A stretch of DNA of 64,000 bases from Clostridia bacterium. Lineage in GTDB: Bacteria > Bacillota > Clostridia > Oscillospirales > RGIG5299. Made by a program: the position numbers and the translations under genes. Every line of letters starts with the position of its first letter. The first letter of the stretch is position 1. The stretch is taken from NCBI GenBank assembly GCA_017504945.1, contig JAFVQJ010000015.1, positions 40,842 to 104,841 of the forward strand, in the 5' to 3' direction. Of the stretch, positions 2,722 through 26,840 are shown piece by piece. The notes under the pieces were generated by a model, which saw only the letters and a list, made by a program, of their open reading frames with translations, ran no database searches and was not told the origin of the DNA.

Positions 2722-4155
2722 ATGGATAACAAGCTTGTTAAAGAAATTACCTCAATGGAAGAGGATTTCACCAAATGGTATACCGACATAGTAAAGAAAG
2801 CCGATCTTATCGACTATTCTTCCGTTAAGGGCTGTATGATATTCCGTCCCTACGGCTTTGCTATTTGGGAAAATATAAGAAATATTCTCGACGCTCGCTT
2901 TAAGGAGCTGGGTCACGAAAACGTTTCGATGCCGCTCTTTATACCCGAAAGCCTTTTGCAGAAGGAAAAGGATCACGTTGCGGGCTTTGCTCCCGAGGTT
3001 GCTTGGGTAACTCACGGCGGCGGTGAAAAGCTCACCGAGCGTCTTTGCGTAAGACCTACCTCTGAGGTGCTTTTCTGCGAGCATTACAAAAATATTATCG
3101 AATCCTACCGCGATCTTCCCAAGCTCTACAACCAGTGGTGCAACGTGGTAAGATGGGAAAAGACCACTCGCCCCTTCCTCAGAAATCTTGAGTTTCATTG
3201 GCAGGAGGGCCACACGATGCACGAAACGGAGGAGGACGCAAGAGAGGAAACTCTCCGTATGCTCCACGTTTATAACGATTTCTACCGCGATTCTCTCGCT
3301 ATTCCCGCAATAATCGGTAAAAAGACCGAAAAGGAAAAGTTCGCAGGCGCTATCGACACCTATACCGTCGAGCCGATGATGCACAACGGCTTTGCTCTTC
3401 AGGGCGGCACCTCCCACTATTTCGGCGACGGCTTTGCCAAGGCGTTTGACATCACCTTTACCGACAGAAATAACAAATTGCAGCATCCGCATCAGACCTC
3501 GTGGGGCGTTTCCACGAGAATGATAGGCGCTATTATAATGACTCACGGTGACGACAGCGGTCTTGTTCTTCCTCCCGCAATAGCACCTATTCAGGTAGTT
3601 ATCCTTCCTATTGCAATGCATAAGGCGGGCGTGCTTGAAAAGGCGGCAGAGCTTAAGGAAAGATTAAAGACCTCCTTCCGTGTCAAGCTCGACGACAGCG
3701 ACAATTCACCCGGATGGAAGTTCTCCGAATACGAGATGAAGGGCGTTCCCTTACGTCTTGAGATAGGCCCCCGCGATATTGCGGACGGTGTTTGCGTTAT
3801 AGTAAGGCGCGACAACCGCGAGAAAACGGTGGTAAAGCTTGAAAACCTCGAGGCAGAGATAAAAAGACTTCTTGCAGAGGTCCACAACGCAATGTATGAA
3901 AAGGCGAAGAAAAATCTTGAGGAAAAGACCTCGGTTGCCAAGAGCTACGACGAGTTTCTCGATATTGCAGCAAACAAGGGCGGCTTTATCAAGGCTATGT
4001 GGTGCGGCGATCCCGAGTGCGAGGCAAAGCTTAAGGACGTAACAGGCGGCGTAAAATCAAGATGCATTCCCTTCGAGGAAGAGGAGATAACCGACACCTG
4101 CGTATGCTGCGGCAAAAAGGCAAAGCATATGGTCGTCTGGGGCAGACAGTATTAA
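2722..4155 (+). CDS. proS: Proline--tRNA ligase (archaeal/eukaryote-like short type)
   Basis: Class II aaRS sequence with [30 protein letters not shown] and WQEGHT, and a C-terminal Zn-binding CxxC...CxxC segment. I chose the start at ATG 2722, which has a GGAGA RBS at 2711-2715, rather than the track start at 2635. Confidence 0.9.
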
Positions 4156-4160
4156 AACGA

Positions 4161-4192
4161 AAAAAGGAACTGCGGCTTGCAGTTCCTTTTTT
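4161..4192. terminator. Bidirectional intrinsic terminator between proS and rubrerythrin
   Basis: Stem GGAACTGC / GCAGTTCC (4166-4173 / 4179-4186), flanked by an A-run and a T-run. Confidence 0.6.
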
Positions 4193-4204
4193 GTTGTAAA
4201 AAAC

Positions 4205-4744
4205 TTAATAGTTTTCTGCCTTTATCTCGAAATATGCCTTGGGATGTGTGCAAACGGGGCAAAGCTCGGGAGCGGTCTCGCCGATGTGAAGATGACCGCA
4301 GTTTCTGCATTTCCAAACGGTAACGCCGTCTACCTTGAATACCTTGCCTGCCTCAACGTTTGCAAGAAGCTTGTTGTAGCGCTCCTCGTGCTCCTTTTCG
4401 ATCTTCGCGACCTCGGCAAAGAGGAAGGAAATGTGGTCAAAGCCCTCCTCCTTCGCAACGCGTGCAAAGTCGGCGTACATCTCGGTCCACTCGTAGTTTT
4501 CGCCTGCGGCGGCGTCCTTGAGATTCTCAACGGTGTCGGGAATCGCACCGTCGTGAAGAAGCTTGAACCAGATCTTTGCGTGCTCCTTCTCGTTTGAGGC
4601 AGTCTCCTCAAAAATTGCCGCTATCTGCTCGTATCCGTCCTTTTTTGCCTTAGATGCATAATAAGAATACTTGTTTCTTGCCTGCGATTCGCCTGCAAAT
4701 GCGGCCATAAGATTGGCTTCTGTTCTGCTGCCCTTGAATTCCAT
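4205..4744 (-). CDS. rbr: Rubrerythrin
   Basis: A ferritin-like diiron domain ([34 protein letters not shown]) is followed by a C-terminal rubredoxin pair, CRNCG...CPVC. Confidence 0.9.
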
Positions 4745-15859: not shown

Positions 15860-18331
15860 ATGAAAAAAACGGTTGCAGTTGTATTGGCTCTTATCCTCAT
15901 TGCCGTTACTGCGTCTGCGGTCTTTACGGGCTGTTCCAATGGGAAAGTTGGATTCAAGGGAAGTCTTACCGTTGCGCTTGACTCAAACGGTAAATACACC
16001 TCGGTAAAGTCCGGCGGCAAGGAGCTAATAACCCAAAGCGGAGCGGGCGGCTTCTTTATCTATAATTTTGAAGACAGAAGCTATTATGAAATGACGGAGG
16101 TCTCCGTTTCCAAAAAGGGAAGCAGCTACACCGTTTCGGGAAGCAACTCCGAGCTCGGAGCAACCCTTAACGCAACTCTTGAACAGAAAAACGGCGCCGT
16201 TATAGTAAAGGGCACGGTGAAGGATACCACCGGTAACGACCGCCGCTTCAGAGTAGAGCATTCACTTCCGATTGATGCAAACGGCTGGCGCTACGGCATT
16301 GATCTTAACAGCTCCGACGAGATAAAAGGAAAAAACGTATTTGCAAACCGCCACACCGTTTTAACCAAGATCTATCAGGCAAACTACCCCTTTGCTTCGA
16401 TATCGAACGACGAAACGGGTATAGCGGCAACCAACTTGTTTGATTCGCCCGTCGTTTACGATTATTGTTACGATAACGAGGCAAAGCTTTTTACCCAGTC
16501 CTTCTATATGGGACTTTCCTCACAGACCAAAAACCCCTCGGAGGGAAGCTTCTCCTTCGCGCTTTACGATTTCAAGGGCTATCACGGCTTCAGAGGCGCG
16601 GCTGACGGAATGTATAAGATCGTTCCCGAGGCGTTTGAAACAAAAGCAGAGGAGCATGGCAACTGGCTTTTCCAGCAAAACGCCTACTATAACCTCAACG
16701 GTGTAGAGGACTACCTCGGAATCTTCAACGAATCTCCCAACTATATATTCGATAATAAATACGGCGTAGCCTCGGCAAAATACGTTGCTCCCGCCGAGAT
16801 ATGGATCTCGTGGTACGACTATGACGGCCCCAACGCCGTTCCCACTGCGGCAGAGCTCAAGAGCAAGCTTGAAAAAATGCTTACGATGCCCGAGTCGGCA
16901 AAGGATATGTACGATAACGTATCTCAAAAGGATATTGCGTCGGCGATTTTCAGCAGTGGCTATTATATAAACAAGAATAACGATTACTGGAACGCGGGCT
17001 GGAACTCCTCTTACTCGAAGATAATGGCATTTATTGCAAACGGCAATCCCAATATTCCCGCCCCGAGCAACTACAGCATTCACCGTCAGATATTCAACGA
17101 CGAGGAGGCAAAAGCGGCATCGGAGGGATACAAGGTAACGGGTCTGTATATTGATAACGCCAACTACGGCTCACTTTCAAATCTCGATTACAATACCGCA
17201 AACTATAAATACAGCAGCTATCCTCTTCTTTGGGATAATTCCGGCACCCTTGCGCTTCCCTTGGGCTACTGCACTTGGGAGTTTATCGATGCCTTTACCG
17301 CAGAGGAAAGCGATAAGATATCTCTCGGAAACATCGCATTCCCCGATAACGGAAGCGCAACCGCGCTTGCTCATTTCTTTGATATCCCCGGCGGCGAGAT
17401 AGGAAACTCGTGGGGACAGACCGACGAGGAGTTTATGCTTCGTCGCGTAAACGCCTACCAAAAGCCTTGGGCACTCCTTCTTACTCAAAACTTCAACGAC
17501 GTTTTTGAAGGCGTTGTTGACAAAAACGAAGCAAACTATAAATCAAAAGAGCTTTTGATGAAACGCTCCCTTTTCTGGGGCGTTATGTGCAACGCTATGA
17601 CTTTGACCGCAGATACTGCGGCGCTTGAAAGCGTAAGACCGCTCTTTATAAAATACGGCACGGCTCAAAAGCTCGTTTCGGAAGCTGGCTGGGAACCGAT
17701 AACCCACGCCGTTCCCACCTCAAACGCAATAAGCTGTGAGAGATTCGGCGGCAACGGCAACGAGGCGGTTTGGTTTACCGTAAGAGCAAACCGCGACGGC
17801 GCCGAAAATGAGGGAATATACGTTCCGCTTCCCAATCTCGGCTTCAAAAAAGGCGATTATAACAAGCTTATTGCATTCGATGTTGTTGCAAATAAAATGC
17901 TTGACGTAGTTGTCGAAGGCGACATAATGACCGTCAAGACAGAGCTTTCCGAAACAGACGACGTTGCGGCGGTAATAATCGGCACTCCCGCGCAGATAGC
18001 GGCAGCACTCAAAGATGAAAACGCCACGGCAGCCAAACGCATAGAGGAAAAGCTTTCGGAACTTGAAAAGCTTGCCGACAAAAAGACCTCCGATCCCGCT
18101 GAGGTAATAGCTGAAATCAAGGAAATGAAAAAGGCAAATGCCGCATTCCTTAAAGCGGTAAATAAAGGCGATTTCGCAAAGGCGGCAGCCGAGCTTGAAA
18201 CGGTAACGAGCCTCTCGCAGAGCTTTATCGACCAAAAGACCTTCGGCGCGGTGGAGGGCAAGGCAATTCAAACCGAGCTTACCGCAGTTGCCGAAAGATA
18301 TATGAACAGATATAAAGCGTTATCGAAATAA
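15860..18331 (+). CDS. Large hypothetical lipoprotein
   Basis: Signal peptide with a lipobox (VFTGC). The protein is 823 aa with an alanine/lysine-rich helical C-terminal tail. No catalytic motif was recognised. Confidence 0.55.
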   Translation: MKKTVAVVLALILIAVTASAVFTGCSNGKVGFKGSLTVALDSNGKYTSVKSGGKELITQSGAGGFFIYNFEDRSYYEMTEVSVSKKGSSYTVSGSNSELGATLNATLEQKNGAVIVKGTVKDTTGNDRRFRVEHSLPIDANGWRYGIDLNSSDEIKGKNVFANRHTVLTKIYQANYPFASISNDETGIAATNLFDSPVVYDYCYDNEAKLFTQSFYMGLSSQTKNPSEGSFSFALYDFKGYHGFRGAADGMYKIVPEAFETKAEEHGNWLFQQNAYYNLNGVEDYLGIFNESPNYIFDNKYGVASAKYVAPAEIWISWYDYDGPNAVPTAAELKSKLEKMLTMPESAKDMYDNVSQKDIASAIFSSGYYINKNNDYWNAGWNSSYSKIMAFIANGNPNIPAPSNYSIHRQIFNDEEAKAASEGYKVTGLYIDNANYGSLSNLDYNTANYKYSSYPLLWDNSGTLALPLGYCTWEFIDAFTAEESDKISLGNIAFPDNGSATALAHFFDIPGGEIGNSWGQTDEEFMLRRVNAYQKPWALLLTQNFNDVFEGVVDKNEANYKSKELLMKRSLFWGVMCNAMTLTADTAALESVRPLFIKYGTAQKLVSEAGWEPITHAVPTSNAISCERFGGNGNEAVWFTVRANRDGAENEGIYVPLPNLGFKKGDYNKLIAFDVVANKMLDVVVEGDIMTVKTELSETDDVAAVIIGTPAQIAAALKDENATAAKRIEEKLSELEKLADKKTSDPAEVIAEIKEMKKANAAFLKAVNKGDFAKAAAELETVTSLSQSFIDQKTFGAVEGKAIQTELTAVAERYMNRYKALSK

Positions 18332-20142: not shown

Positions 20143-20979
20143 ATGAAAAGGGTACTGACAGAAACGGAATTGGAGAAATTTGAAGGATATCTGCTCAAAG
20201 AGGAAAAAAGCCTGCGCACAGTGGAAAAATATCTGCGCGACGTCGGGCGGTTTATCACCTTTGCAAACGGCAGGGAAATAGAAAAAAGCACGGTAATTGC
20301 CTATAAAACCATGCTCGAGAAAAGCTATGCCGTTTCGAGTGCAAACACAATGCTTGCCGCCCTGAACGGCTTTTTTCGCTTTATGGAGTGGCATGATCTC
20401 ACGGTAAAGCAGTTTAAATTTCAAAACAGAAGCTTTTGCCCGCAGGACAAGGAGCTTTCGAGAGAAGAATATGCGCGTCTCGTAACAACGGCGCTAAAAC
20501 AGGGGAACGAGCGTCTTTCACTCATTCTGCAGACCGTGTGCAGCACGGGCATACGCATAAGCGAGCTTGAATACATAACCGCCGAAACGGTAAGGCGCGG
20601 CGAGACGGTTGTAAGCTGCAAGGGTAAAAAACGCGTTATCCTGCTCGTGCCCGATCTTCAGAAAAAGCTTGAAAGATACGTTCGCAAAAACGGGATAGAA
20701 GGAAAGCTTTTCGTAACGAATAGCGGAAAGCCCGTTTGCCGCACGAACGTCTGGCGAGAGATGAAGCGTCTTGCCGCCGACGCCGACGTGCCCGAGAATA
20801 AGGTCTTTCCGCACAATTTAAGGCATCTCTTTGCCCGAACCTTCTATTCAATGGATAAGGATATAGTCAAGCTTGCCGACATTTTGGGGCATACCAACAT
20901 AAATACCACGCGAATATACACCGTTACAACTGCCGACGAATACAAAAAGAAGATGGAGGAGATGATGCTGATAATATAA
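20143..20979 (+). CDS. Tyrosine site-specific recombinase (XerC/D- or RecV-like), candidate invertase for the adjacent switch
   Basis: An N-terminal SAM-like domain (LRTVEKYLRDVGRFITF) is followed by a catalytic domain with the STGIRISEL (Arg), HNLRHLFA (His-x-x-Arg) and GHTNINTTRIYT (His...Tyr) motifs. ATG 20143 follows a GGAGG RBS, and an extended -10 (TGtTATAAT) lies at 20107-20115. Confidence 0.85.
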   Translation: MKRVLTETELEKFEGYLLKEEKSLRTVEKYLRDVGRFITFANGREIEKSTVIAYKTMLEKSYAVSSANTMLAALNGFFRFMEWHDLTVKQFKFQNRSFCPQDKELSREEYARLVTTALKQGNERLSLILQTVCSTGIRISELEYITAETVRRGETVVSCKGKKRVILLVPDLQKKLERYVRKNGIEGKLFVTNSGKPVCRTNVWREMKRLAADADVPENKVFPHNLRHLFARTFYSMDKDIVKLADILGHTNINTTRIYTVTTADEYKKKMEEMMLII

Positions 20980-21010
20980 AAACTGCCCACAGTCTTAAGA
21001 CTGCGGGCAG
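20976..21010 (-). terminator. Terminator of the leftward variant-A operon
   Basis: Hairpin CTGCCCACAGTCTT / AAGACTGCGGGCAG (20983-21010). Read on the minus strand it is followed by TTTT. Confidence 0.5.
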
Positions 21011-21032
21011 TAAATCAAAGATCCTTGGTCGA

Positions 21033-21164
21033 TTAATCCCAGCCGTTTTCGCCGGTAATGTAGTTTCCTTCGTTTTCACCCTCGGTAGTGGGGATAGAAA
21101 CGGTGATAACGTCTTCGATAGCAAAAAGCTCAAATTCGATTTCAGGTGTAGTATATTTTTTCAT
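21033..21164 (-). CDS. Conserved 43-aa acidic small protein (copy A), downstream of variant A
   Basis: My translation gives MKKYTTPEIEFELFAIEDVITVSIPTTEGENEGNYITGENGWD. It is preceded by AAAGGAGAT. It is below the track's length cut-off. A near-identical copy lies at 26654-26785. Confidence 0.5.
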   Translation of the reverse strand: MKKYTTPEIEFELFAIEDVITVSIPTTEGENEGNYITGENGWD

Positions 21165-21583
21165 TTTATTTATCTCCTTTCACCGAATTATGCGTTCATA
21201 GCATCGTTGATGCTTATAGCACGGAGACCACCGTAGGTGATGGTGCCGTCAGCATACTCAACGTAGCTTACTGCAAGGAAGATTCTGCTGAGCTGATCCT
21301 CGGGAATACCGATAAGAACTGCGGTAAAGGAGATCGAGTCGTCGGTCTTCTCGTAGTAGTTCTTTGCAACGATATCAAGGTAAGAGGTGCCGTCGATCTT
21401 GCCGTCTTGAGTATGACCGAGATAACCGCCGGTTACCTTGTCTGCGGGCATGATGATGGTGCCCATCTTTACGATAGAATCGTTGTTGTTAACGCTGTTA
21501 AGAGCAACGGTGGTCTTGAAACGAAGACCTGCTGCTACCTTCTCGGAAGGTGCTCTCCACTGTACAACGGGAGTGGTAGCCTT
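21033..21583. repeat. Outer inverted repeat, arm A (3' constant region of variant A plus the small ORF)
   Basis: This is the reverse complement of 26235-26785. I counted about 10 mismatches in the ~400 nt of the large gene that I aligned by eye. The mirror-image spurious ORFs in the track (21407..22129 + and 26097..26465 -) share the same peptide, which confirms the repeat. Confidence 0.85.
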
Positions 21584-23707
21584 GTTCTCGGTTTCGTTGT
21601 AATAAGCATCTGCACCTTCGTATTTACCGGCGGTTATACCGTTGATTGCTTTGAATTCTGCGGTAGCACCGCTGGTGCCGTAGCCGGTCTGACCGACTAT
21701 AACGTAAGCCTGATTGTTCTCATCAAGAACGTTGGTTACATTGAATTCGTAATCAACGTATGCGCCGGTGGGCTCTTCGGTCTCGGGATCGATCTCTTCA
21801 ATCTGAAGTGCTGCGCCGTTAAGATAGATCTTAACGTATTTATTACCGTCAACCTCGTAAACGTCGCCTACCGAGAAGGTGTTATCAACGTCGTTGGACC
21901 AAGCGTTAGTGAAGGCTATGGCGCCTACAACACCGGATCCGTAGATAACGTTATCGCCGCCGACGTGGATAGCAAGAGCAGTTGCGGGGTTGCAATCGGG
22001 GAAATAGGTATTGACGGACATCTGGAGGCTGTACGTAGTGGGCTTGGTTGCGCTCAAGATGAAATCGGTGTGAGCGTTAGGAGAGGAAAAGGTATTAGCG
22101 GTTTTGTTTATAACTATCTCAAGTCTTGATGCGAAGAGCTTCTCGTTATAAACAACGCCTGCCTGACCCCAGTTTCCGGTATTACTGTTGAGTTTGATTA
22201 TACCGTTGGGCTTATAAGAAACGATGCCGCCGGGAGTGGTTGCGTCTGCCATCCAAGGAGCGAGAACCGTCCAGTTAGAATCTGCGGGATCAAACTCAGC
22301 GGGAACCTCTAACCAAAGACCATAATTATTGGGAACAAAACCGCTGATATCAGAAATGATGTAGGTTCCGGTGGTATTGCCGCCATAGGTAGAAGCACCG
22401 AAGCCGAGAACCGCAATACCGTCTACAGAAAAGATAGATGCGGCATTTGCGAAGGTGTAGATAAGAGTGCCGTTAGCATAAAGATTAACGTCTGCACCGT
22501 CAATGCTGAATATGAAAGAGTTTACGTCGTTTACTTTGATGGCACTTACTACCTTATCTGCAAGAGATACACCGGAGTTAACACATGCGCCGTTAACATA
22601 AGTGTAGAGAAGTATCTGGTTGGCCAGATTGTTAACAAGTCTGAACTCAATGCTGTCACCGTTGGTAGTCTGAACGCAAGAACCGGCAGCGGTTGAAGGA
22701 ACAGTTGTGTTAGCTGCGGTAGAAAGCATTACCGAGAAGTTCTGGAAGCAGGTGCCTGCATCCTTGCCCGTATCATCGGTAAGAGCTTGATTAGGAACAA
22801 AGATATCAAGAGAAATGTTATTGCCCGAATCGAATGCAACACCCTTTAAAGAACTGATAGCTGCGCCCGACCATGCACCGGCGCCTATGGAAAGGGTACC
22901 GTCTGCGTTGATTGCTGCTGTTGCATTGTTTGCAGCAGAAGTATTCCAAGTGGGCTCAACGTAAGTATAAGCCTCGTAATCTGCAACAGAGTCGTCGTTA
23001 GAAACTATTTTGAAGTTTCTGAAGGAGGGCATATTGTTCCAGTCGCCGCAGTCGCCGTTGGAGCCAAGAACAACGTATTTGCCGGTTGCATTTTCGGGAG
23101 TATAGGCGTTGCAAACAAGAACGTCGTTTACCCACATAGAAACAACACCGTTTGCTACAACGACCTTAACGGTATTCCAATCGCCGGATTCGATACCGAT
23201 GATAGAATAGGGAGATGCTGCACAAGCAACTGCTTTTGCAGAAGTGTCAAAAAGTTCTACTACATTGTAGGTGCCCCAAGCAGCGTAGTTATCGGGGGTG
23301 CCTGCTGCCGTACCCTCGTAGTTGGCGAGTTTTACAGACATAGCGCCTGTCCAGTTTTTGTCTGCGCCGTCGGGGTATACACCCATAACGCCTACTACGG
23401 GAACACCGTTAGTAGTACTTGCGCTCTGGGTTGCGGGGACGTATGCTTCAACAGTAATAGTGTAGTTATTGTTGTAAGCAGAGGCATCATAAAGTGCGCC
23501 GAGGTTTGCAAAAGGAACCTCAGGATTGCCCCAACCCATAGAGAGAGAACCGTCAGCGTTTACTTTGAAGTTAGATGCGCTTGCGCCGCCGGTAGCGGTG
23601 TGCTCCCAACCGTCAGCAACTGCTGCCGATGCCATGGGGATTGCTGCAAATGCGAGAGGCAATATCATGATTATTGCGACCGCAATGCAAAGGAGTTTTC
23701 TTTTCAT
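21188..23707 (-). CDS. Secreted multi-domain beta-sandwich (LamG/concanavalin-like lectin-type) protein, variant A
   Basis: 839 aa. The signal peptide MKRKLLCIAVAIIMILPLAFAAIPMASAA is identical to that of variant B. Repeated modules of the type W..V.V.V.NG.V..W.ND look like LamG/DUF1080-type modules, but this is from memory and weak. The C-terminal ~130 aa are nearly identical to variant B. Confidence 0.8.
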   Translation of the reverse strand: MKRKLLCIAVAIIMILPLAFAAIPMASAAVADGWEHTATGGASASNFKVNADGSLSMGWGNPEVPFANLGALYDASAYNNNYTITVEAYVPATQSASTTNGVPVVGVMGVYPDGADKNWTGAMSVKLANYEGTAAGTPDNYAAWGTYNVVELFDTSAKAVACAASPYSIIGIESGDWNTVKVVVANGVVSMWVNDVLVCNAYTPENATGKYVVLGSNGDCGDWNNMPSFRNFKIVSNDDSVADYEAYTYVEPTWNTSAANNATAAINADGTLSIGAGAWSGAAISSLKGVAFDSGNNISLDIFVPNQALTDDTGKDAGTCFQNFSVMLSTAANTTVPSTAAGSCVQTTNGDSIEFRLVNNLANQILLYTYVNGACVNSGVSLADKVVSAIKVNDVNSFIFSIDGADVNLYANGTLIYTFANAASIFSVDGIAVLGFGASTYGGNTTGTYIISDISGFVPNNYGLWLEVPAEFDPADSNWTVLAPWMADATTPGGIVSYKPNGIIKLNSNTGNWGQAGVVYNEKLFASRLEIVINKTANTFSSPNAHTDFILSATKPTTYSLQMSVNTYFPDCNPATALAIHVGGDNVIYGSGVVGAIAFTNAWSNDVDNTFSVGDVYEVDGNKYVKIYLNGAALQIEEIDPETEEPTGAYVDYEFNVTNVLDENNQAYVIVGQTGYGTSGATAEFKAINGITAGKYEGADAYYNETENKATTPVVQWRAPSEKVAAGLRFKTTVALNSVNNNDSIVKMGTIIMPADKVTGGYLGHTQDGKIDGTSYLDIVAKNYYEKTDDSISFTAVLIGIPEDQLSRIFLAVSYVEYADGTITYGGLRAISINDAMNA

Positions 23708-23791
23708 GGTTTTTTTCCTTTCTTAATAATAAAATTTTTTTAATTTAGTTTACTTAAACGGTCGACAAATACAACATAATGAACATTATGT
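23621..23791. repeat. Inner inverted repeat, left arm (signal-peptide codons + 5' UTR + recombination core)
   Basis: 171 bp that is the reverse complement of 24154-24323 with a single 1-nt indel (A4 vs A3 at ~23731). Identity stops exactly at the end of the palindromic core (23791). Confidence 0.9.
23774..23791 (+). other. Candidate recombination core site L (ACATAATG-AA-CATTATGT)
   Basis: This near-palindrome sits at the inner end of the left IR arm. The context acaACATAATGAACATTATGTatc has the central TGAACA in the same orientation as site M and opposite to site R. Confidence 0.6.
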
Positions 23792-23806
23792 ATCAAAAAA
23801 ACCGTG

Positions 23807-23836
23807 AAAAAAAACAAAAACCACCCTCTCGGGTGG
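23807..23836 (-). terminator. Unidirectional (leftward-acting) terminator inside the invertible segment
   Basis: Hairpin CCACCC-tctc-GGGTGG (23821-23836). On the minus strand it is followed by TTTTTGTTTT. On the plus strand no T-run follows, so it should stop only transcription heading toward variant A. Confidence 0.55.
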
Positions 23837-23846
23837 CGAAAAGAAA

Positions 23847-23864
23847 ACATAATGAACATTATGT
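23847..23864 (+). other. Candidate recombination core site M (third, internal copy)
   Basis: aaaACATAATGAACATTATGTtgc has the same 18-bp core and the same orientation as site L. It lies 73 bp to the right of L, on the other side of the terminator. Confidence 0.55.
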
Positions 23865-23867
23865 TGC

Positions 23868-23896
23868 TTGAAAAAATACCGTTTTCGCCCTATTAT
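23868..23896 (+). promoter_or_regulatory. Promoter-like element, rightward (TTGAAA-N17-TATTAT)
   Basis: The hexamers and 17-nt spacing were read directly. The region is AT-rich, so the false-positive risk is high. Confidence 0.3.
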
Positions 23897-23907
23897 ATAT
23901 AAAAAAC

Positions 23908-23936
23908 ATTATAATATAGGTGCCTCCTCGCGACAA
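23908..23936 (-). promoter_or_regulatory. Promoter-like element, leftward (TTGTCG-N17-TATAAT on the minus strand)
   Basis: In plus-strand coordinates the -35 is at 23931-23936 and the -10 at 23908-23913. Transcripts from here would hit the 23807-23836 terminator before reaching variant A. Confidence 0.3.
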
Positions 23937-24087
23937 ATTTATAAATCCTCCCTTGAAATCCTCGAAAGCCGCACCACAGCTTGCTTTGCAGACCTTTTTT
24001 GCCGTTAAAATTTAAAAACTTTTGTCGATTTATACAAAAAATACACCTAAATTGACAATATTTTCTATAAAAAATAAAAATAAAGGC

Positions 24088-24116
24088 TTGCATTTTCCCT
24101 CTTGTTATGGTAAAAT
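24088..24116 (+). promoter_or_regulatory. Best sigma-70-type promoter in the switch, currently facing variant B (TTGCAT-N17-TGgTAAAAT)
   Basis: The -35 TTGCAT is at 24088-24093, followed by a 17-nt spacer and an extended -10 with TGG at 24108-24110 and TAAAAT at 24111-24116. It lies inside the invertible segment, 35 bp from site R. Confidence 0.5.
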
Positions 24117-24153
24117 AAAGTGAAATTTAGTTTATTTAATATGAATTCATACA

Positions 24154-24171
24154 ACATAATGTTCATTATGT
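24154..24171 (-). other. Candidate recombination core site R (ACATAATG-TT-CATTATGT, inverted relative to L and M)
   Basis: With flanks it forms a perfect 24-bp palindrome except for the central dinucleotide: ACAACATAATG-TT-CATTATGTTGT (24151-24174). It sits at the inner end of the right IR arm. Confidence 0.6.
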
Positions 24172-24323
24172 TGTATTTGTCGACCGTTTAAGTAAACTAA
24201 ATTAAAAAAATTTATTATTAAGAAAGGAAAAAAACCATGAAAAGAAAACTCCTTTGCATTGCGGTCGCAATAATCATGATATTGCCTCTCGCATTTGCAG
24301 CAATCCCCATGGCATCGGCAGCA
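24154..24323. repeat. Inner inverted repeat, right arm
   Basis: It is the partner of 23621-23791 and covers the core site, the 5' UTR, the RBS (AAGAAAGGAAAAAAACC ATG) and the first 29 codons of variant B. Confidence 0.9.
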
Positions 24324-26630
24324 TCGGTTAAGTATATTTCTTCTGATTTTTCTTATCCCGCCGATATAAATGGAATTGCAATCAACTCAGACGGCTCTAT
24401 GGGCGTTAGCTATGGTACACATGCTGAAAACGGTGTAAACTCTTACGTTGACTTTGTTGGCACCGCAAATCTTGGCAATAGCTACACCGTAGAGGTTGAT
24501 GTTCGTCTTGCAGAACAGATGCAGTATGCAGCTGCTATCGGCTTGGGTGCAAGTGATTCTTGGGTAGGTGCAGGCTTGGTTGTTAAGCTCGGTAATAACG
24601 GTAATAATTATCTTGAACTTTACGACAACGCTCTTGCTCCCTTGACTCCCGCTGTTGCTTCTGCAGCAGACTTCAACATGCGCACTTACAGCGAAGGCTT
24701 TAACACCGTAAAGTTCGTTGTAGAAAACAACGTTGTTGACCTTTATATCAACGACGTTCTTGTTCTCGCAGATTATGCGATGACTCCCATCGGCGGCTAT
24801 CTCGCTCTCGGTGTAAACGGAGATGCCGGAAACAAATACGTTCCTGTAACCTACAAAAATCTTAAGGTTACCAACGGCGAAGGAACCAAAAGCTATCTTG
24901 ATCAGCCTTTGAATTGGAACTTACAGGATCTCCAGGGAATAGGCGGAGCCTCCGATATGGCTGCTGCAGACCGTATTAATCCCAGCACCTATGTTTTGAA
25001 TAAAACAAACGGCTCTTTCGGAATTTATTCAAATGCATGGTCCGGATCGATCATTTCCTCTAAAAAGGCATTGGATATCAGCTCTGCCATTACGACAGAG
25101 GTGGTTATCGGCAATATGCCTTACGAAGCAACTGCCGGTCATGGAGCAAATCCCGCACAGTGCCACTCTATCGTTTTATCTGCATCGTCTCCCTCTATCA
25201 TTGCTAATGCATTTGCAGAATCGACCGTATACAGCGGTATAGAGGTTAAATTCATTAAAGATGTAGACGGAAATATCGACGTCTATTTTATGGAAAACGG
25301 AGCATTGAAGCTTCTGTCAGAAAACTTGTTCGTTCCCGGTGACGTAGTAACCTTTGCCTTCAAAAATAACGGCACCGATATTGCGGTATATGCCGCCAAG
25401 GGCAACGAAGCAGAAGCATTGCTTTATACATATGCAAATGCAGCTGGCAATTTCGCAGGATATGCATTTTTGGCTTACACCGCACAGACGTATGGCGGCG
25501 CAGTAACAAATGAAATGACCGTAAATAAAGTAAATGGCGTTGCAGCACTGGATTACGCAGGCGGTATTGTACCTGTAGAAGTCAAAGACGGTTGGAGCGA
25601 TGCTTTTGAAGCAGCATTTAACGCAAGTCAGAACGTACAGTGCGGTCAGGGTACTGTTGTTTTCAGTGCCAACGGTGAAATGAATCTCATTTCCGGTGAT
25701 GGTTGGTTTGGACATGCGGGAACCGCATTGGTTGAGAAAGTAGCTCTTTCCGGTTTGTCACTTGTCGTTGACATTTCCGGATTTACAATTAATGAACACA
25801 ATTTCGTCATATCTCTTACCAAGGCTCCCATTAGTGCAGCAGAATCTGCTGGAAGTTTCTGGTCTATTCCCGCATACGATAAGACCGCAACTACCAGCGA
25901 TCTCGGCTTGTTCTTCGATAAAAACGGAGGAATCGTAACCTGGTATGGACGTAATGACTGCGCACAGGGTGCCTTTGAAATCGGAGAGGACGCTAAATTT
26001 ACCGTAAAGTTTGGCGAGCCTTATGCTGACGGCGAAAAGACACTTGTTAAGCTGTATGTAAACGGCGCAGAAATCAGATCGTACGATATAACCGATTTAT
26101 TGGACGAGGACGGTAAGGTATACCTTTCTACCGGAGTTACCGGATATGGAAATACCGGTTGTTCTGCAAAAGTTATCAGCGTAAACGGTGTTACTGCAGG
26201 TCTTTATGACGGTGCAGCTACCTACACCGATCACAAGGCTACCACTCCCGTTGTACAGTGGAGAGCACCTTCCGAGAAAGTAGCAGCAGGTCTTCGTTTC
26301 AAGACCACCGTTGCTCTTAACGGCGTTAACAACAACGATTCTATCGTAAAGATGGGCACCATCATCATGCCCGCAGACAAGGTAACCGGCGGTTATCTCG
26401 GTCATACTCAAGACGGCAAGATCGACGGCACCTCTTACCTTGATATCGTTGCAAAGAACTACCACGAGAAGACCGACGACTCGATCTCCTTCACCGCAGT
26501 TCTTATCGGTATTCCCGAGGATCAGCTTGATAGAATCTTCCTTGCAGTAAGCTACGTTGAGTATGCTGACGGCACCATCACCTACGGTGGTCTCCGTGCT
26601 GTAAGCATCAACGATGCCATGAACGCATAA
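24237..26630 (+). CDS. Secreted multi-domain beta-sandwich (LamG/concanavalin-like lectin-type) protein, variant B
   Basis: 797 aa. The first 29 aa are identical to variant A. The central ~640 aa are only distantly similar to variant A, although the architecture is the same. The last ~130 aa (TTPVVQWRAPSEKVAAGLRFKTTVALN...GGLRAxSINDAMNA) are nearly identical. Confidence 0.8.
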   Translation: MKRKLLCIAVAIIMILPLAFAAIPMASAASVKYISSDFSYPADINGIAINSDGSMGVSYGTHAENGVNSYVDFVGTANLGNSYTVEVDVRLAEQMQYAAAIGLGASDSWVGAGLVVKLGNNGNNYLELYDNALAPLTPAVASAADFNMRTYSEGFNTVKFVVENNVVDLYINDVLVLADYAMTPIGGYLALGVNGDAGNKYVPVTYKNLKVTNGEGTKSYLDQPLNWNLQDLQGIGGASDMAAADRINPSTYVLNKTNGSFGIYSNAWSGSIISSKKALDISSAITTEVVIGNMPYEATAGHGANPAQCHSIVLSASSPSIIANAFAESTVYSGIEVKFIKDVDGNIDVYFMENGALKLLSENLFVPGDVVTFAFKNNGTDIAVYAAKGNEAEALLYTYANAAGNFAGYAFLAYTAQTYGGAVTNEMTVNKVNGVAALDYAGGIVPVEVKDGWSDAFEAAFNASQNVQCGQGTVVFSANGEMNLISGDGWFGHAGTALVEKVALSGLSLVVDISGFTINEHNFVISLTKAPISAAESAGSFWSIPAYDKTATTSDLGLFFDKNGGIVTWYGRNDCAQGAFEIGEDAKFTVKFGEPYADGEKTLVKLYVNGAEIRSYDITDLLDEDGKVYLSTGVTGYGNTGCSAKVISVNGVTAGLYDGAATYTDHKATTPVVQWRAPSEKVAAGLRFKTTVALNGVNNNDSIVKMGTIIMPADKVTGGYLGHTQDGKIDGTSYLDIVAKNYHEKTDDSISFTAVLIGIPEDQLDRIFLAVSYVEYADGTITYGGLRAVSINDAMNA

Positions 26631-26785
26631 TTCGGTGAAAGGAGATAAATAAAATGAAAAAATATACTACACCTGAAATCGAATTTGAGCTTTTTGCTAT
26701 CGAGGACGTTATCACCGTTTCCCTTCCTTCTGCTGAGGGTGAAAACGAGGGCGGATACATCACCGGCGAAAACGGTTGGGACTAA
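26235..26785. repeat. Outer inverted repeat, arm B
   Basis: This is the partner of 21033-21583 (see that entry). Confidence 0.85.
26654..26785 (+). CDS. Conserved 43-aa acidic small protein (copy B), downstream of variant B
   Basis: MKKYTTPEIEFELFAIEDVITVSLPSAEGENEGGYITGENGWD, preceded by an AAAGGAGAT RBS. It differs from copy A at 4 of 43 residues. Confidence 0.5.
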   Translation: MKKYTTPEIEFELFAIEDVITVSLPSAEGENEGGYITGENGWD

Positions 26786-26810
26786 TCCACCGATTTAACT
26801 CAATAATTAA

Positions 26811-26840
26811 AAACCGCAGGCATATTGCCTGCGGTTTTTT
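26811..26840 (+). terminator. Terminator of the rightward variant-B operon
   Basis: Stem AACCGCAGGC / GCCTGCGGTT followed by TTTTT. Confidence 0.7.

Follow-up and report, generated by a model that had tools for sequence, protein, structure and literature searches.

A probable tyrosine-recombinase inverton with three site copies between two divergent paralogs of a Clostridia bacterium

Described switches of related design

Switching of the Campylobacter fetus sap S-layer genes reportedly uses a unique promoter on an invertible segment, in work attributed to Dworkin and Blaser (1996-97). The segment lies between opposed paralogs with conserved 5' ends that are expressed in a mutually exclusive manner, and its inversion is RecA-dependent, using conserved regions of about 600 bp and no dedicated recombinase. 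The locus described here likewise has a promoter segment between opposed paralogs with conserved 5' ends, but differs in its 22-bp sites and dedicated recombinase; as a recombinase is present together with short sites whose half-sites recur family-wide, the locus does not fit a sap type of inversion that has long 5' homology as its only substrate.

In the Mycoplasma agalactiae vpma and M. bovis vsp loci, tyrosine recombinases encoded within the locus (Xer1/Mbr) place a single promoter by site-specific inversion before alternative, oppositely oriented surface-protein paralogs; these have in common a conserved 5' UTR and signal-peptide coding sequence, and the sites lie in the 5' UTR (PMC2268961). 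The present locus shares the predicted movement of a promoter, with one conserved promoter and one weaker consensus match seen in the sequence, the paralogs with a common 5' UTR and signal-peptide sequence, the placement of sites in the 5' UTR, and the locus-encoded tyrosine recombinase, which is likened to Xer1 at the general family level. It differs in having two genes rather than six or more, in its Gram-positive-type Clostridia host, in a signal peptide of Ala-Ser-Ala (signal peptidase I type) appearance instead of a lipoprotein one, in the additional conservation of the C-terminal domain, and in a terminator cassette between two direct sites.

The opposed genes UU172/UU171 and mba/UU376 of Ureaplasma parvum are alternately expressed through inversion at short inverted repeats, with three repeat copies reported for the mba locus, and the inversion moves the 5' coding part (membrane anchor), which creates chimeric genes (PMC3047005). 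Two opposed genes with short inverted repeats are also found here, in three copies as in mba, whereas the crossover would fall before the coding sequence, and the signal peptide exists as an identical copy in both genes. An earlier note on this DNA had regarded one switch for two divergent paralogs with identical leaders as undescribed, which was an overstatement in view of the vpma/vsp and Ureaplasma precedents (PMC2268961, PMC3047005): the design is known from mycoplasmas, to which the present locus adds one further recombination site, its third, and a terminator predicted to move.

Leader termination contributes to the OFF state of the Clostridioides difficile RecV switches cwpV, flgB, and cmrRST (PMC7446863, PMC3080850). 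The present locus resembles both the RecV switches and E. coli fimS (FimB/FimE) in its short inverted repeats, its tyrosine recombinase, and a regulatory segment that is predicted to be switchable. The known examples have two sites and turn one operon ON or OFF, while here one promoter would serve two divergent genes, the sites number three, and the invertible block would carry a terminator along. The site sequence is presumably unlike the RecV repeats.

Anatomy and conservation of the locus

The window, i.e. the whole 64 kb stretch that was analysed, comes from an uncultured ruminant-gut Clostridia bacterium. The features of the locus, in window positions, are:

20143-20979, plus strand: Xer-like tyrosine recombinase, presumed invertase, 278 aa, recognised by domains and catalytic residues
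20982-21011: hairpin separating the recombinase gene from the convergent A unit, resembling a terminator on the minus strand
21027-21592: left arm of the 3' repeat, with the A C-terminus (~135 aa), the 43-aa ORF, and the spacer that follows
21033-21164, minus strand: 43-aa acidic ORF downstream of A, from translation
21188-23707, minus strand: paralog A, 839 aa, secreted, predicted OFF in the present configuration
23621-23791: left arm of the 5' repeat, 171 nt, with A signal-peptide codons, RBS, and 84-nt leader
23772-23793, plus strand: site S1, CAACATAA-TGAACA-TTATGTAT, outer half-site perfect, terminator-side half-site imperfect
23806-23837, minus strand: module T, intrinsic terminator with a 7-bp GC stem, GAGA loop, and U-run
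23845-23866 (core 23847-23864), plus strand: site S2, AAACATAA-TGAACA-TTATGTTG, direct relative to S1
23867-24151: segment P, promoter-bearing and predicted invertible
23908-23936, minus strand: second promoter-like site TTGTCG-N17-TATAAT, a consensus match
24088-24116, plus strand: main promoter TTGCAT-N17-TGgTAAAAT, at present facing gene B
24152-24173, plus strand: site S3, CAACATAA-TGTTCA-TTATGTTG, perfect, inverted relative to S1 and S2
24154-24323: right arm of the 5' repeat, 170 nt, with B leader, RBS, and signal-peptide codons
24237-26630, plus strand: paralog B, 797 aa, predicted ON
26226-26791: right arm of the 3' repeat, including a 43-aa ORF at 26654-26785
26809-26839, plus strand: terminator hairpin separating the B unit from polA, from the hairpin scan

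All coordinates that the earlier note gave for the divergent genes and their 529-nt intergenic region hold, as does its 5' inverted repeat, which covers the 84-nt leader and 87 coding nt and whose arms differ only in the length of one T-run (T4 vs T3). A second inverted repeat, formed by the 3' ends of A and B, had been overlooked. Paralog A consists of ConA/LamG/galectin-like beta-sandwich domains in tandem, and A and B are 40% identical overall, with identical first 29 aa, about 97% identity over the last ~135 aa, and 27% in the central part. For the 43-aa ORF, an RBS was directly seen just for the duplicate copy after B; ORFs that are alike in size (36-43 aa as called, and compared by size) follow family genes in relatives.

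The recombinase gene is complete, as had been claimed. Its product belongs to the tyrosine recombinase superfamily (PF00589, Phage_integrase, E = 2.6e-23; PF02899, SAM-like, E = 1e-8), and the catalytic R, K, HxxR, H, and Y align with XerD, where GIRISEL, CKGKKR, HNLRH, LGH, and RIY fall on the catalytic positions of 1a0p. It scored below the NCBIfam equivalog cut-offs for XerA (137.8 vs 220), XerD (123.6 vs 329.6), and XerC (112.1 vs 335), and identity as any of these chromosome-dimer resolvases was consequently rejected. The gene ends about 50 nt from the 43-aa ORF, in agreement with the ~50 bp previously given as its distance from the left operon, and 208 nt from the A stop codon. More than 8000 relatives were found at about 60% identity. 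Recombinase and gene pair are syntenic in the window species, in L017, and in L020. No recombinase gene was found at the window-equivalent position, after a 556-aa gene, in L021 and L023, which have one site and one gene; this absence favours an A/B toggle.

The near-palindromic core ACATAATG-AA/TT-CATTATGT is present as first described, but the number of sites had to be revised: S2 is a third copy that was missed, which turns the proposed two-site switch into one with three sites. Allowing for up to three mismatches, the core occurs three times in 64 kb against 0.09 expected, and the 18-nt cores of S1, S2, and S3 are exact copies. Sites have a 22-bp format in which 8-bp half-sites (CAACATAA and TTATGTTG) surround an asymmetric 6-bp spacer. 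S1 and S2 are both inverted relative to S3 and together with it flank a short segment, the arrangement that a promoter inverton requires. The position of S2, direct relative to S1, places the terminator between the two, and S2 shares no flanking homology with the other sites, so gene duplication does not explain it. The cores end 66 nt (S1, A) and 65 nt (S3, B) upstream of the ATG. The spacer co-varies per genome, with TGAACA at all three sites here and TGCCCA throughout the sister-species loci, which again favours the toggle.

The putative main promoter was found where the earlier note had placed it; it was unlisted in the consensus scan because its -35 hexamer matches just 3 of 6 positions. 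Its position and extended -10 are kept in L017, L020, L021, and L023, and the putative extended -10 promoter is conserved in position across five loci. The leftward-acting hairpin with T-run was likewise recovered (-13.5 kcal/mol, z = -2.75), and is predicted to act only on transcription toward gene A. In sister species, a terminator with another stem sequence occupies the same place, its U-run always gene-proximal. Sites, promoter, and terminator are thus conserved across species. The predicted ON-state leader folds into a 5' hairpin (-24.9 kcal/mol, z = -4.7) that requires the P end to be joined to the leader. Promoter conservation, terminator placement, and leader fold are all in line with the toggle, while the second promoter-like site in P, whose transcripts would run leftward into T, counts against it.

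Orientation of the segment in relatives

The earlier interpretation of the locus as an inverton is supported by homologous loci that invert. At the P0004 locus, which has a 59% identical recombinase and three sites CAACATAA-N6-TTATGTTG with spacer CGCCTG, the 242-nt promoter segment in L015 and L016 is the exact reverse complement of that in L009-L012 and L014, and contig L013 terminates exactly at a site. At a viral-contig locus (L058/L107), 8 nt separate the end of the 54% identical recombinase from an inverted pair of sites whose half-sites are those found in the window; a foldback contig (L095) has both junction types. Both orientations of the enclosed promoter segment were found in natural samples at the 59% and 54% loci, which supports a real invertase family, and the window locus is by this analysis very probably a tyrosine-recombinase inverton.

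The two-site model of that interpretation proved incomplete. No flipped contig of the species was found among the assemblies: two contigs from independent samples and both halves of a third, broken assembly have the same orientation, which weighs against the toggle. The junctions of an S1xS3 flip would be identical to the present ones over >40 nt, so short sequences could not reveal such a state. In one sample the assembly break falls within P, and repeats do not account for it.

A search for the opposite orientation, suggested earlier, did find the module flipped in two relatives, and both cases speak for the toggle. L017 belongs to this species or is closely related to it (polA-side identity 98.3%), and its P segment, 93.7% identical, is flipped relative to the flanking genes, with the promoter end linked via a site to the recombinase-proximal gene. 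The remainder is deleted at a 10-nt microhomology, whose two copies would lie in direct orientation only after an inversion of P or of the whole block. The L017 site is degenerate and its partner sites are deleted; this decay of a lone site after partner loss implies selection for maintaining the sites in the window. In L019, from a sister species, the S-T-S module adjoins the polA-side gene as a mirror image of the window.

Proposed switch and alternatives

I consider it fairly probable that the locus is a site-specific A/B promoter toggle in which the terminator insulates the silent gene, and infer the action of the recombinase on these sites, the reacting pairs, and the consequences for expression as follows. 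The recombinase would recognise the 22-bp sites with half-sites CAACATAA and TTATGTTG and TGAACA spacer, and would invert DNA between oppositely oriented sites. In the present state, A <- leader-S1-T-S2-P(->)-S3-leader -> B, the extended -10 promoter of P would read through S3 into the common leader, so that B would be expressed, while leftward transcription would end at T and leave A silent. Recombination of S1 with S3 would flip T and P as one block, upon which the promoter would read into A through its identical leader, with T turned around to act rightward and shield B. The outcome would be mutually exclusive expression of two secreted multi-lectin-fold paralogs that have a common leader, signal peptide, and C-terminal domain but differ in their central parts.

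Further configurations are possible with three sites. S2 would let P flip alone, so that the promoter fires into T, and the third site may thereby add a both-off or attenuated state. It is doubtful, though conceivable, that the three sites and the terminator cassette make up a full four-configuration, three-phenotype switch (A on, B on, both off), in which a single recombinase would rearrange one promoter and one portable terminator.

The same S2xS3 flip of P could instead be all that the switch does. It would then be ON/OFF or strong/weak for B only, T would stay beside A, the main promoter would never drive A, and the role of S1 would be that of an accessory binding site, helically in phase with S2. 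P0004, the sole relative with a readable reacting pair, recombined its inner pair (L015, L016), which by analogy would mean S2xS3 here and would not turn A on. Other features also fit: the perfect half-sites of S2 and S3 face P while the T-facing ones are imperfect, the S1-S2 spacing is kept at 71-73 nt in three species (about 7 helical turns), and the leftward promoter-like site would face B after a P flip. Nevertheless, a B-only switch appears unlikely, as A retains an RBS and an intact ORF, and its leader is the same as the B leader even in the stretch that pairs with the P end in the 5' hairpin; furthermore, the S1 core matches that of S2 at 18/18 positions, the L017 promoter is directly joined via a site to the recombinase-proximal gene, and T lies on the opposite side in L019.

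RecA could equally have produced the L017 and L019 arrangements, in the manner of C. fetus sap, through homologous recombination that uses the 171-nt repeats to flip the promoter and/or the 566-nt repeats to flip the whole block; the neighbouring recombinase would then be irrelevant. The comparative sequences are compatible with this and with site-specific S1xS3 inversion alike. The repeats are long and near-identical (170/171 nt here, 171/171 in L002, and 566 nt at 95%), and the alleles are mosaics, which points to frequent homologous exchange at the conserved ends. However, the 5' repeat identity ends 2 nt inside a 22-bp site, the third site is without flanking homology, the spacers of one genome co-vary, and related recombinases invert segments flanked by just about 20-bp sites. 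Together with the synteny of recombinase and gene pair described above for the window species, L017, and L020, and the absence of the recombinase from its usual position in the single-site loci L021 and L023, this makes a RecA-driven inversion distinctly unlikely.

A fossil switch, in which an inverted duplication was partly homogenised by gene conversion and now has a fixed promoter, dead sites, and constitutive B, would agree with the single orientation seen in this species and with the locked single-gene derivatives that occur naturally (L017, L021, L023), but is very improbable given three exact cores, an intact recombinase with all catalytic residues, and the selection on sites implied by their decay in L017.

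If the four-configuration, three-phenotype switch is real, the locus would be the first to be dissected in a very large and uncharacterised family of Clostridia invertases, comprising the >8000 relatives at about 60% identity and using a common 8-6-8 site, CAACATAA-N6-TTATGTTG. The targets of this family seem to include surface proteins, a Peptidase_M73-like operon, and a probable DNA methyltransferase.

Anatomy of the proposed switch and its probable mechanism

The sequence features on which the earlier note had built its proposal of a switch were all confirmed. The two large open reading frames lie at 21188-23707 (minus strand) and 24237-26630 (plus strand) with a spacer of 529 nt, and the claimed 171/170-nt inverted repeat of their 5' ends was recovered by a repeat-finder as two overlapping pairs (23621-23745/24199-24323 and 23711-23791/24154-24234) that combine into one; direct comparison of the arms showed that their only difference is a single T in a T-run. 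The promoter-like TTGCAT-N17-TGgTAAAAT was found at 24088-24116 and the leftward hairpin with its T-run folded at -13.5 kcal/mol (z = -2.75), while the recombinase is complete, with 278 aa, PF00589 and PF02899 domains, and catalytic residues that align with those of XerD. The near-palindromic core ACATAATG-WW-CATTATGT is also present, but in three copies, one of which had been overlooked: allowing up to 3 mismatches, it occurs three times in 64 kb, against 0.09 expected by chance. The additional copy (23847-23864, within S2) has the polarity of S1 and no flanking homology to the other sites, and the terminator lies between these two, a position that had not been described. Likewise new was a 566-nt inverted repeat at the 3' ends (21027-21592 vs 26226-26791, 95%), which contains the last ~135 codons of both paralogs, a 43-aa acidic ORF, and ~160 nt of spacer.

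Features of the proposed switch locus
21188-23707, minus strand: secreted paralog A, predicted to be off
24237-26630, plus strand: secreted paralog B, predicted to be on
23772-23793: recombination site S1, CAACATAA-TGAACA-TTATGTAT
23792-23846, between S1 and S2: terminator module T
23845-23866: recombination site S2, direct to S1, AAACATAA-TGAACA-TTATGTTG
23867-24151: promoter-bearing segment P, with its promoter end at about 24100-24151
24152-24173: recombination site S3, inverted, CAACATAA-TGTTCA-TTATGTTG
21033-21164, minus strand, and 26654-26785, plus strand: 43-aa acidic ORF MKKYTTPEIEFELFAIEDVITVS...GENGWD, after each paralog and inside the 3' inverted repeat

When the three sites are set beside those of relatives, a putative recombination site of 22 bp emerges, in which an asymmetric 6-bp spacer separates the 8-bp half-sites CAACATAA and TTATGTTG. 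The half-sites facing the leaders and P are perfect, and those facing T are imperfect.

A and B are 40% identical overall, with identical first 29 residues, a C-terminus at ~97%, and a middle part at 27%. A foldback assembly artefact as the origin of the two-gene structure was rejected on this low identity of the middle part, and also on the same structure in independent assemblies from different samples. The switch feature in the window is real; the switching is what I infer.

The locus is fairly likely to be a toggle of the site-specific kind. As it now stands, transcription from the conserved promoter would run through S3 into the shared leader of B, with a predicted transcript start near 24122; the predicted 5' hairpin of this transcript (end of P, S3, and leader) folds at -24.9 kcal/mol (z = -4.7), and no Rfam family scored above its gathering score in the leader or switch. 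T would stop leftward transcription, for example from a second promoter-like site at 23936-23908. Inversion between S1 and S3 would turn the promoter of P towards A, with T then shielding B, and S2 would additionally permit flips of P alone that aim the promoter at T.

Configurations of the proposed switch and their expected output
T next to A, P towards B: B expected on
T next to A, P towards T: both expected off or attenuated
T next to B, P towards A: A expected on
T next to B, P towards T: both expected off or attenuated

The first configuration is the only one observed in the window species and its mirror image occurs in relatives; both configurations with P pointing towards T are hypothetical. 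Judging from tyrosine recombinase synapsis, steric hindrance probably impedes the excision of T between the direct sites, which lie 55 nt apart. An AT-rich imperfect palindrome, CCTATTATATATAAAAAACATTATAATATAGG (23889-23920), sits in P close to S2 and overlaps the second promoter-like site. A similar motif is conserved in three relatives (L017, L019, and L020), and an accessory protein may bind or bend the DNA there.

Inversion at related recombinase loci and in the A/B family

The window recombinase has more than 8000 relatives at ~60% identity and ~279 aa, the nearest outside the species being 62% identical, and it scores under the XerC, XerD, and XerA cut-offs. At the loci of one relative (P0004, 59% identical; L009-L016), three sites with the spacer CGCCTG and the half-sites of the window come after the recombinase gene: two are direct and 33 nt apart, and the third is inverted, 260 nt further on. 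The 242-nt segment between the inner pair is the exact reverse complement in L015/L016 of that in L009-L012 and L014, with identical flanks, and a further contig (L013) terminates exactly at a site. In L015/L016, the promoter TTGCAA-N17-TGTGATATAAT is directed at the downstream operon. Among the products of the operon under this invertible promoter are a Peptidase_M73-like protein and a sigma-70 region-4 protein. At the start of the unit is a large serine recombinase, and the chromosomal surroundings of the unit differ (those on the ClpB/CobW side in L009, those on the NAD synthase side in L010); the locus suggests a mobile element with its own phase switch.

Viral contigs were scanned for CAACATAA-N6-TTATGTTG, which yielded 101 loci, mostly single sites at chance level. 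L058 and L107 carry an inverted site pair, 250 nt apart with the spacer TCGGCA, and a recombinase 54% identical to the window's that ends 8 nt from one site. L095, a foldback contig from this locus, holds both junction types, so both orientations existed in that sample.

Viral switch (IMG/VR contigs; 228-nt segment, spacer TCGGCA)
3998-4269: L058
1243-1514: L107
872-1143: L095

Together, the P0004 and viral loci amount to natural inversion in two independent relatives, at the same half-sites as in the window. The viral switch lies upstream of a gene with a DNA methyltransferase-like motif, FLEPACGNGNFL, in its N-terminus, and L058 and L107 diverge further into this gene; the locus may be a phase-variable restriction-modification system.

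A and B belong to a very rare protein family, with 8 clusters among 5.8 billion proteins, all of whose members have the leader, signal peptide, and 3' end in common, with mosaic central parts. Profile scans of genome contigs and metagenome contigs returned only three related MAGs and no copy from the window species. In L020 (MAG SGB_816), the order is recombinase, gene, leader, site, T, site, and P pointing away, which is the window's state, with the spacer TGCCCA at both sites. L019 (MAG SGB_6988) shows the mirror state: P pointing away, then site, T, site, leader, and the gene on the side of polA, the gene downstream of the B unit. The terminators in these relatives have another stem sequence and are still strong hairpins (-21.3 and -20.1 kcal/mol); in every case the U-run lies towards the adjacent gene, and the distance from site to site comes to 73, 73, and 71 nt across the three species. 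The promoter segments of L021 and L020 are 91% identical and are oriented oppositely to each other with respect to the adjacent gene. L021 and L023 have one gene and one site, with the promoter towards the gene, and their 556-aa gene is not followed by a recombinase gene as it is in the window.

L017 matches the window at 98.3% identity towards polA and at 92% towards the recombinase, and carries a single gene adjoining the recombinase. A degenerate site, ACATGATGCTCATTATGT, joins the promoter end of P to the leader of this gene, and at its far end P runs directly into the region upstream of polA, the joint being a 10-nt microhomology, CGTTTTCGCC, found at window 23880-23889 and as its reverse complement at 26765-26774. 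These copies are direct only if P or the whole block from A to B had been inverted relative to the window, which makes L017 a deletion derivative of a flipped state. Its sequence would be compatible with a flip by S1 and S3, by the 171-nt repeats, or by the 566-nt repeats alike. Orthology of the gene next to T was tried as a test between inversion at S1 and S3 and inversion of the whole block, and failed because the alleles are mosaic, the middle parts of L019 and L020 being 23% identical. Central parts are 74% identical between A and P0122, 62% between C and P0126, and 60% between P0125 and P0128, with most other pairs at 23-36% and near-invariant 5' and 3' ends (alleles P0121-P0128; L017-L023). 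The pattern looks like cassette exchange via conserved ends under diversifying selection.

Search for the flipped state in the window species

A search for the locus in opposite orientation, as the earlier note had proposed, was successful in relatives (the mirror or flipped arrangements of L019 and L017) and returned none in the window species. L001, which is the window's own contig, and L002 both have the present configuration, and exact-protein look-ups with the recombinase, A, B, polA, the 556-aa gene, and family members turned up no other configuration in contigs of the species. Junctions formed by inversion between S1 and S3 are identical to the present junctions over the tested +/-20 nt, and within the 171-nt repeat the sole possible difference between A-on and B-on junctions is the T-run indel ~40 nt from the site. 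The A-on state would thus hardly show in contig data or in short junction searches, and the absence of the flipped state from two or three assemblies is weak evidence. The T3/T4 indel was uninformative as a crossover marker, since the 5' repeat of L002 is a perfect 171 nt with T4 on both sides; the orientation call of L002, made across this perfect repeat, carries weaker weight.

Flips of P alone have diagnostic 40-mers (GCGAAAAGAAAACATAATGAACATTATGTTGTATGAATTC, TTTTTCAAGCAACATAATGTTCATTATGTTGTATTTGTCG, CGACAAATACAACATAATGAACATTATGTTGCTTGAAAAA, and GAATTCATACAACATAATGTTCATTATGTTTTCTTTTCGC). In sample ERZ27256862, the megahit assembly is broken within P, with a gap of 53 nt (window 23975-24027) between the end of L008 at 23974 and the start of L007 at 24028. 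In an assembly-graph simulation at k = 141 the pure present state assembled through, so the repeats alone are not the cause of the break. A simulated mixture with the P-only flip gave ends at 23985 and 24033, near the observed ends and not exact, and the break was set aside as evidence for such a flip; it could reflect mixed orientations, strain variation, or low coverage.

Putative switched proteins and possible significance

Both A and B carry a cleavable signal peptide. AlphaFold models A as an all-beta protein (mean pLDDT 67), and the Foldseek matches of this model are tandem concanavalin-A-like, LamG, or galectin-type domains, such as BT3469, the lectin wings of V. cholerae sialidase, tandem galectins, and SraP. 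There was also a weak PF06439 match, the conserved C-terminal domain matched no Pfam or NCBIfam family, and a PDB sequence search with A gave no match. A and B are probably secreted glycan-binding proteins or adhesins. The 43-aa ORF, which matched nothing in Pfam or NCBIfam, has a strong RBS after B, seen directly, and an ORF of similar size (36-43 aa as called) follows the A/B-family genes of relatives; it could be a co-transcribed partner or a peptide precursor. Two lipoproteins directly upstream of the recombinase, neither with a family match, are kept there in every related locus, with an additional 822-aa paralog in L017 and L020, and may be functionally linked to the switched proteins.

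Neighbouring genes
15860-18331: lipoprotein, 823 aa
18374-20044: lipoprotein, 556 aa
34911-39964: 833-aa RicinB-lectin/Big_2 surface protein, then three ORFs of 266-282 aa without a Pfam match

The G+C content of the last region falls to 0.37-0.38 at 36-40 kb, and it may be a horizontally acquired surface-protein island.

Among known systems, C. fetus sap is a RecA-dependent analogue. The earlier suggestion that the arrangement may be undescribed was overstated, as its main elements are already found in the Mycoplasma vpma/vsp loci, where the signal-peptide regions and the 5' UTRs, which hold the recombination sites, are conserved, there is only one promoter, and the tyrosine recombinase is encoded in the locus (PMC2268961). 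In Ureaplasma, the opposed genes of UU172/UU171 and of mba/UU376 alternate by inversion, and the mba locus has three repeats (PMC3047005). Literature searches on inverton toggles between divergent genes and on rumen invertons returned nothing relevant. Three aspects look new, with no description found in the literature searched: the minimal two-gene form in Clostridia, the terminator cassette that is bracketed by direct sites and moves with the promoter, and the connection with a recombinase family that is very large and has a definable site. For this family of Xer-like recombinases in Clostridia, the consensus CAACATAA-N6-TTATGTTG offers a testable site, through which many further switches could be found from sequence alone. 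An inverted repeat longer than the k-mer or read renders the toggle invisible to junction-based inverton callers, so that switches of this kind are probably under-counted. If the proposed toggle is true, a gut anaerobe would alternate between two secreted proteins of glycan-binding type, and perhaps also neither, which would be a form of bet-hedging with a bearing on attachment, on phage or host recognition, and on how strains persist in the rumen.
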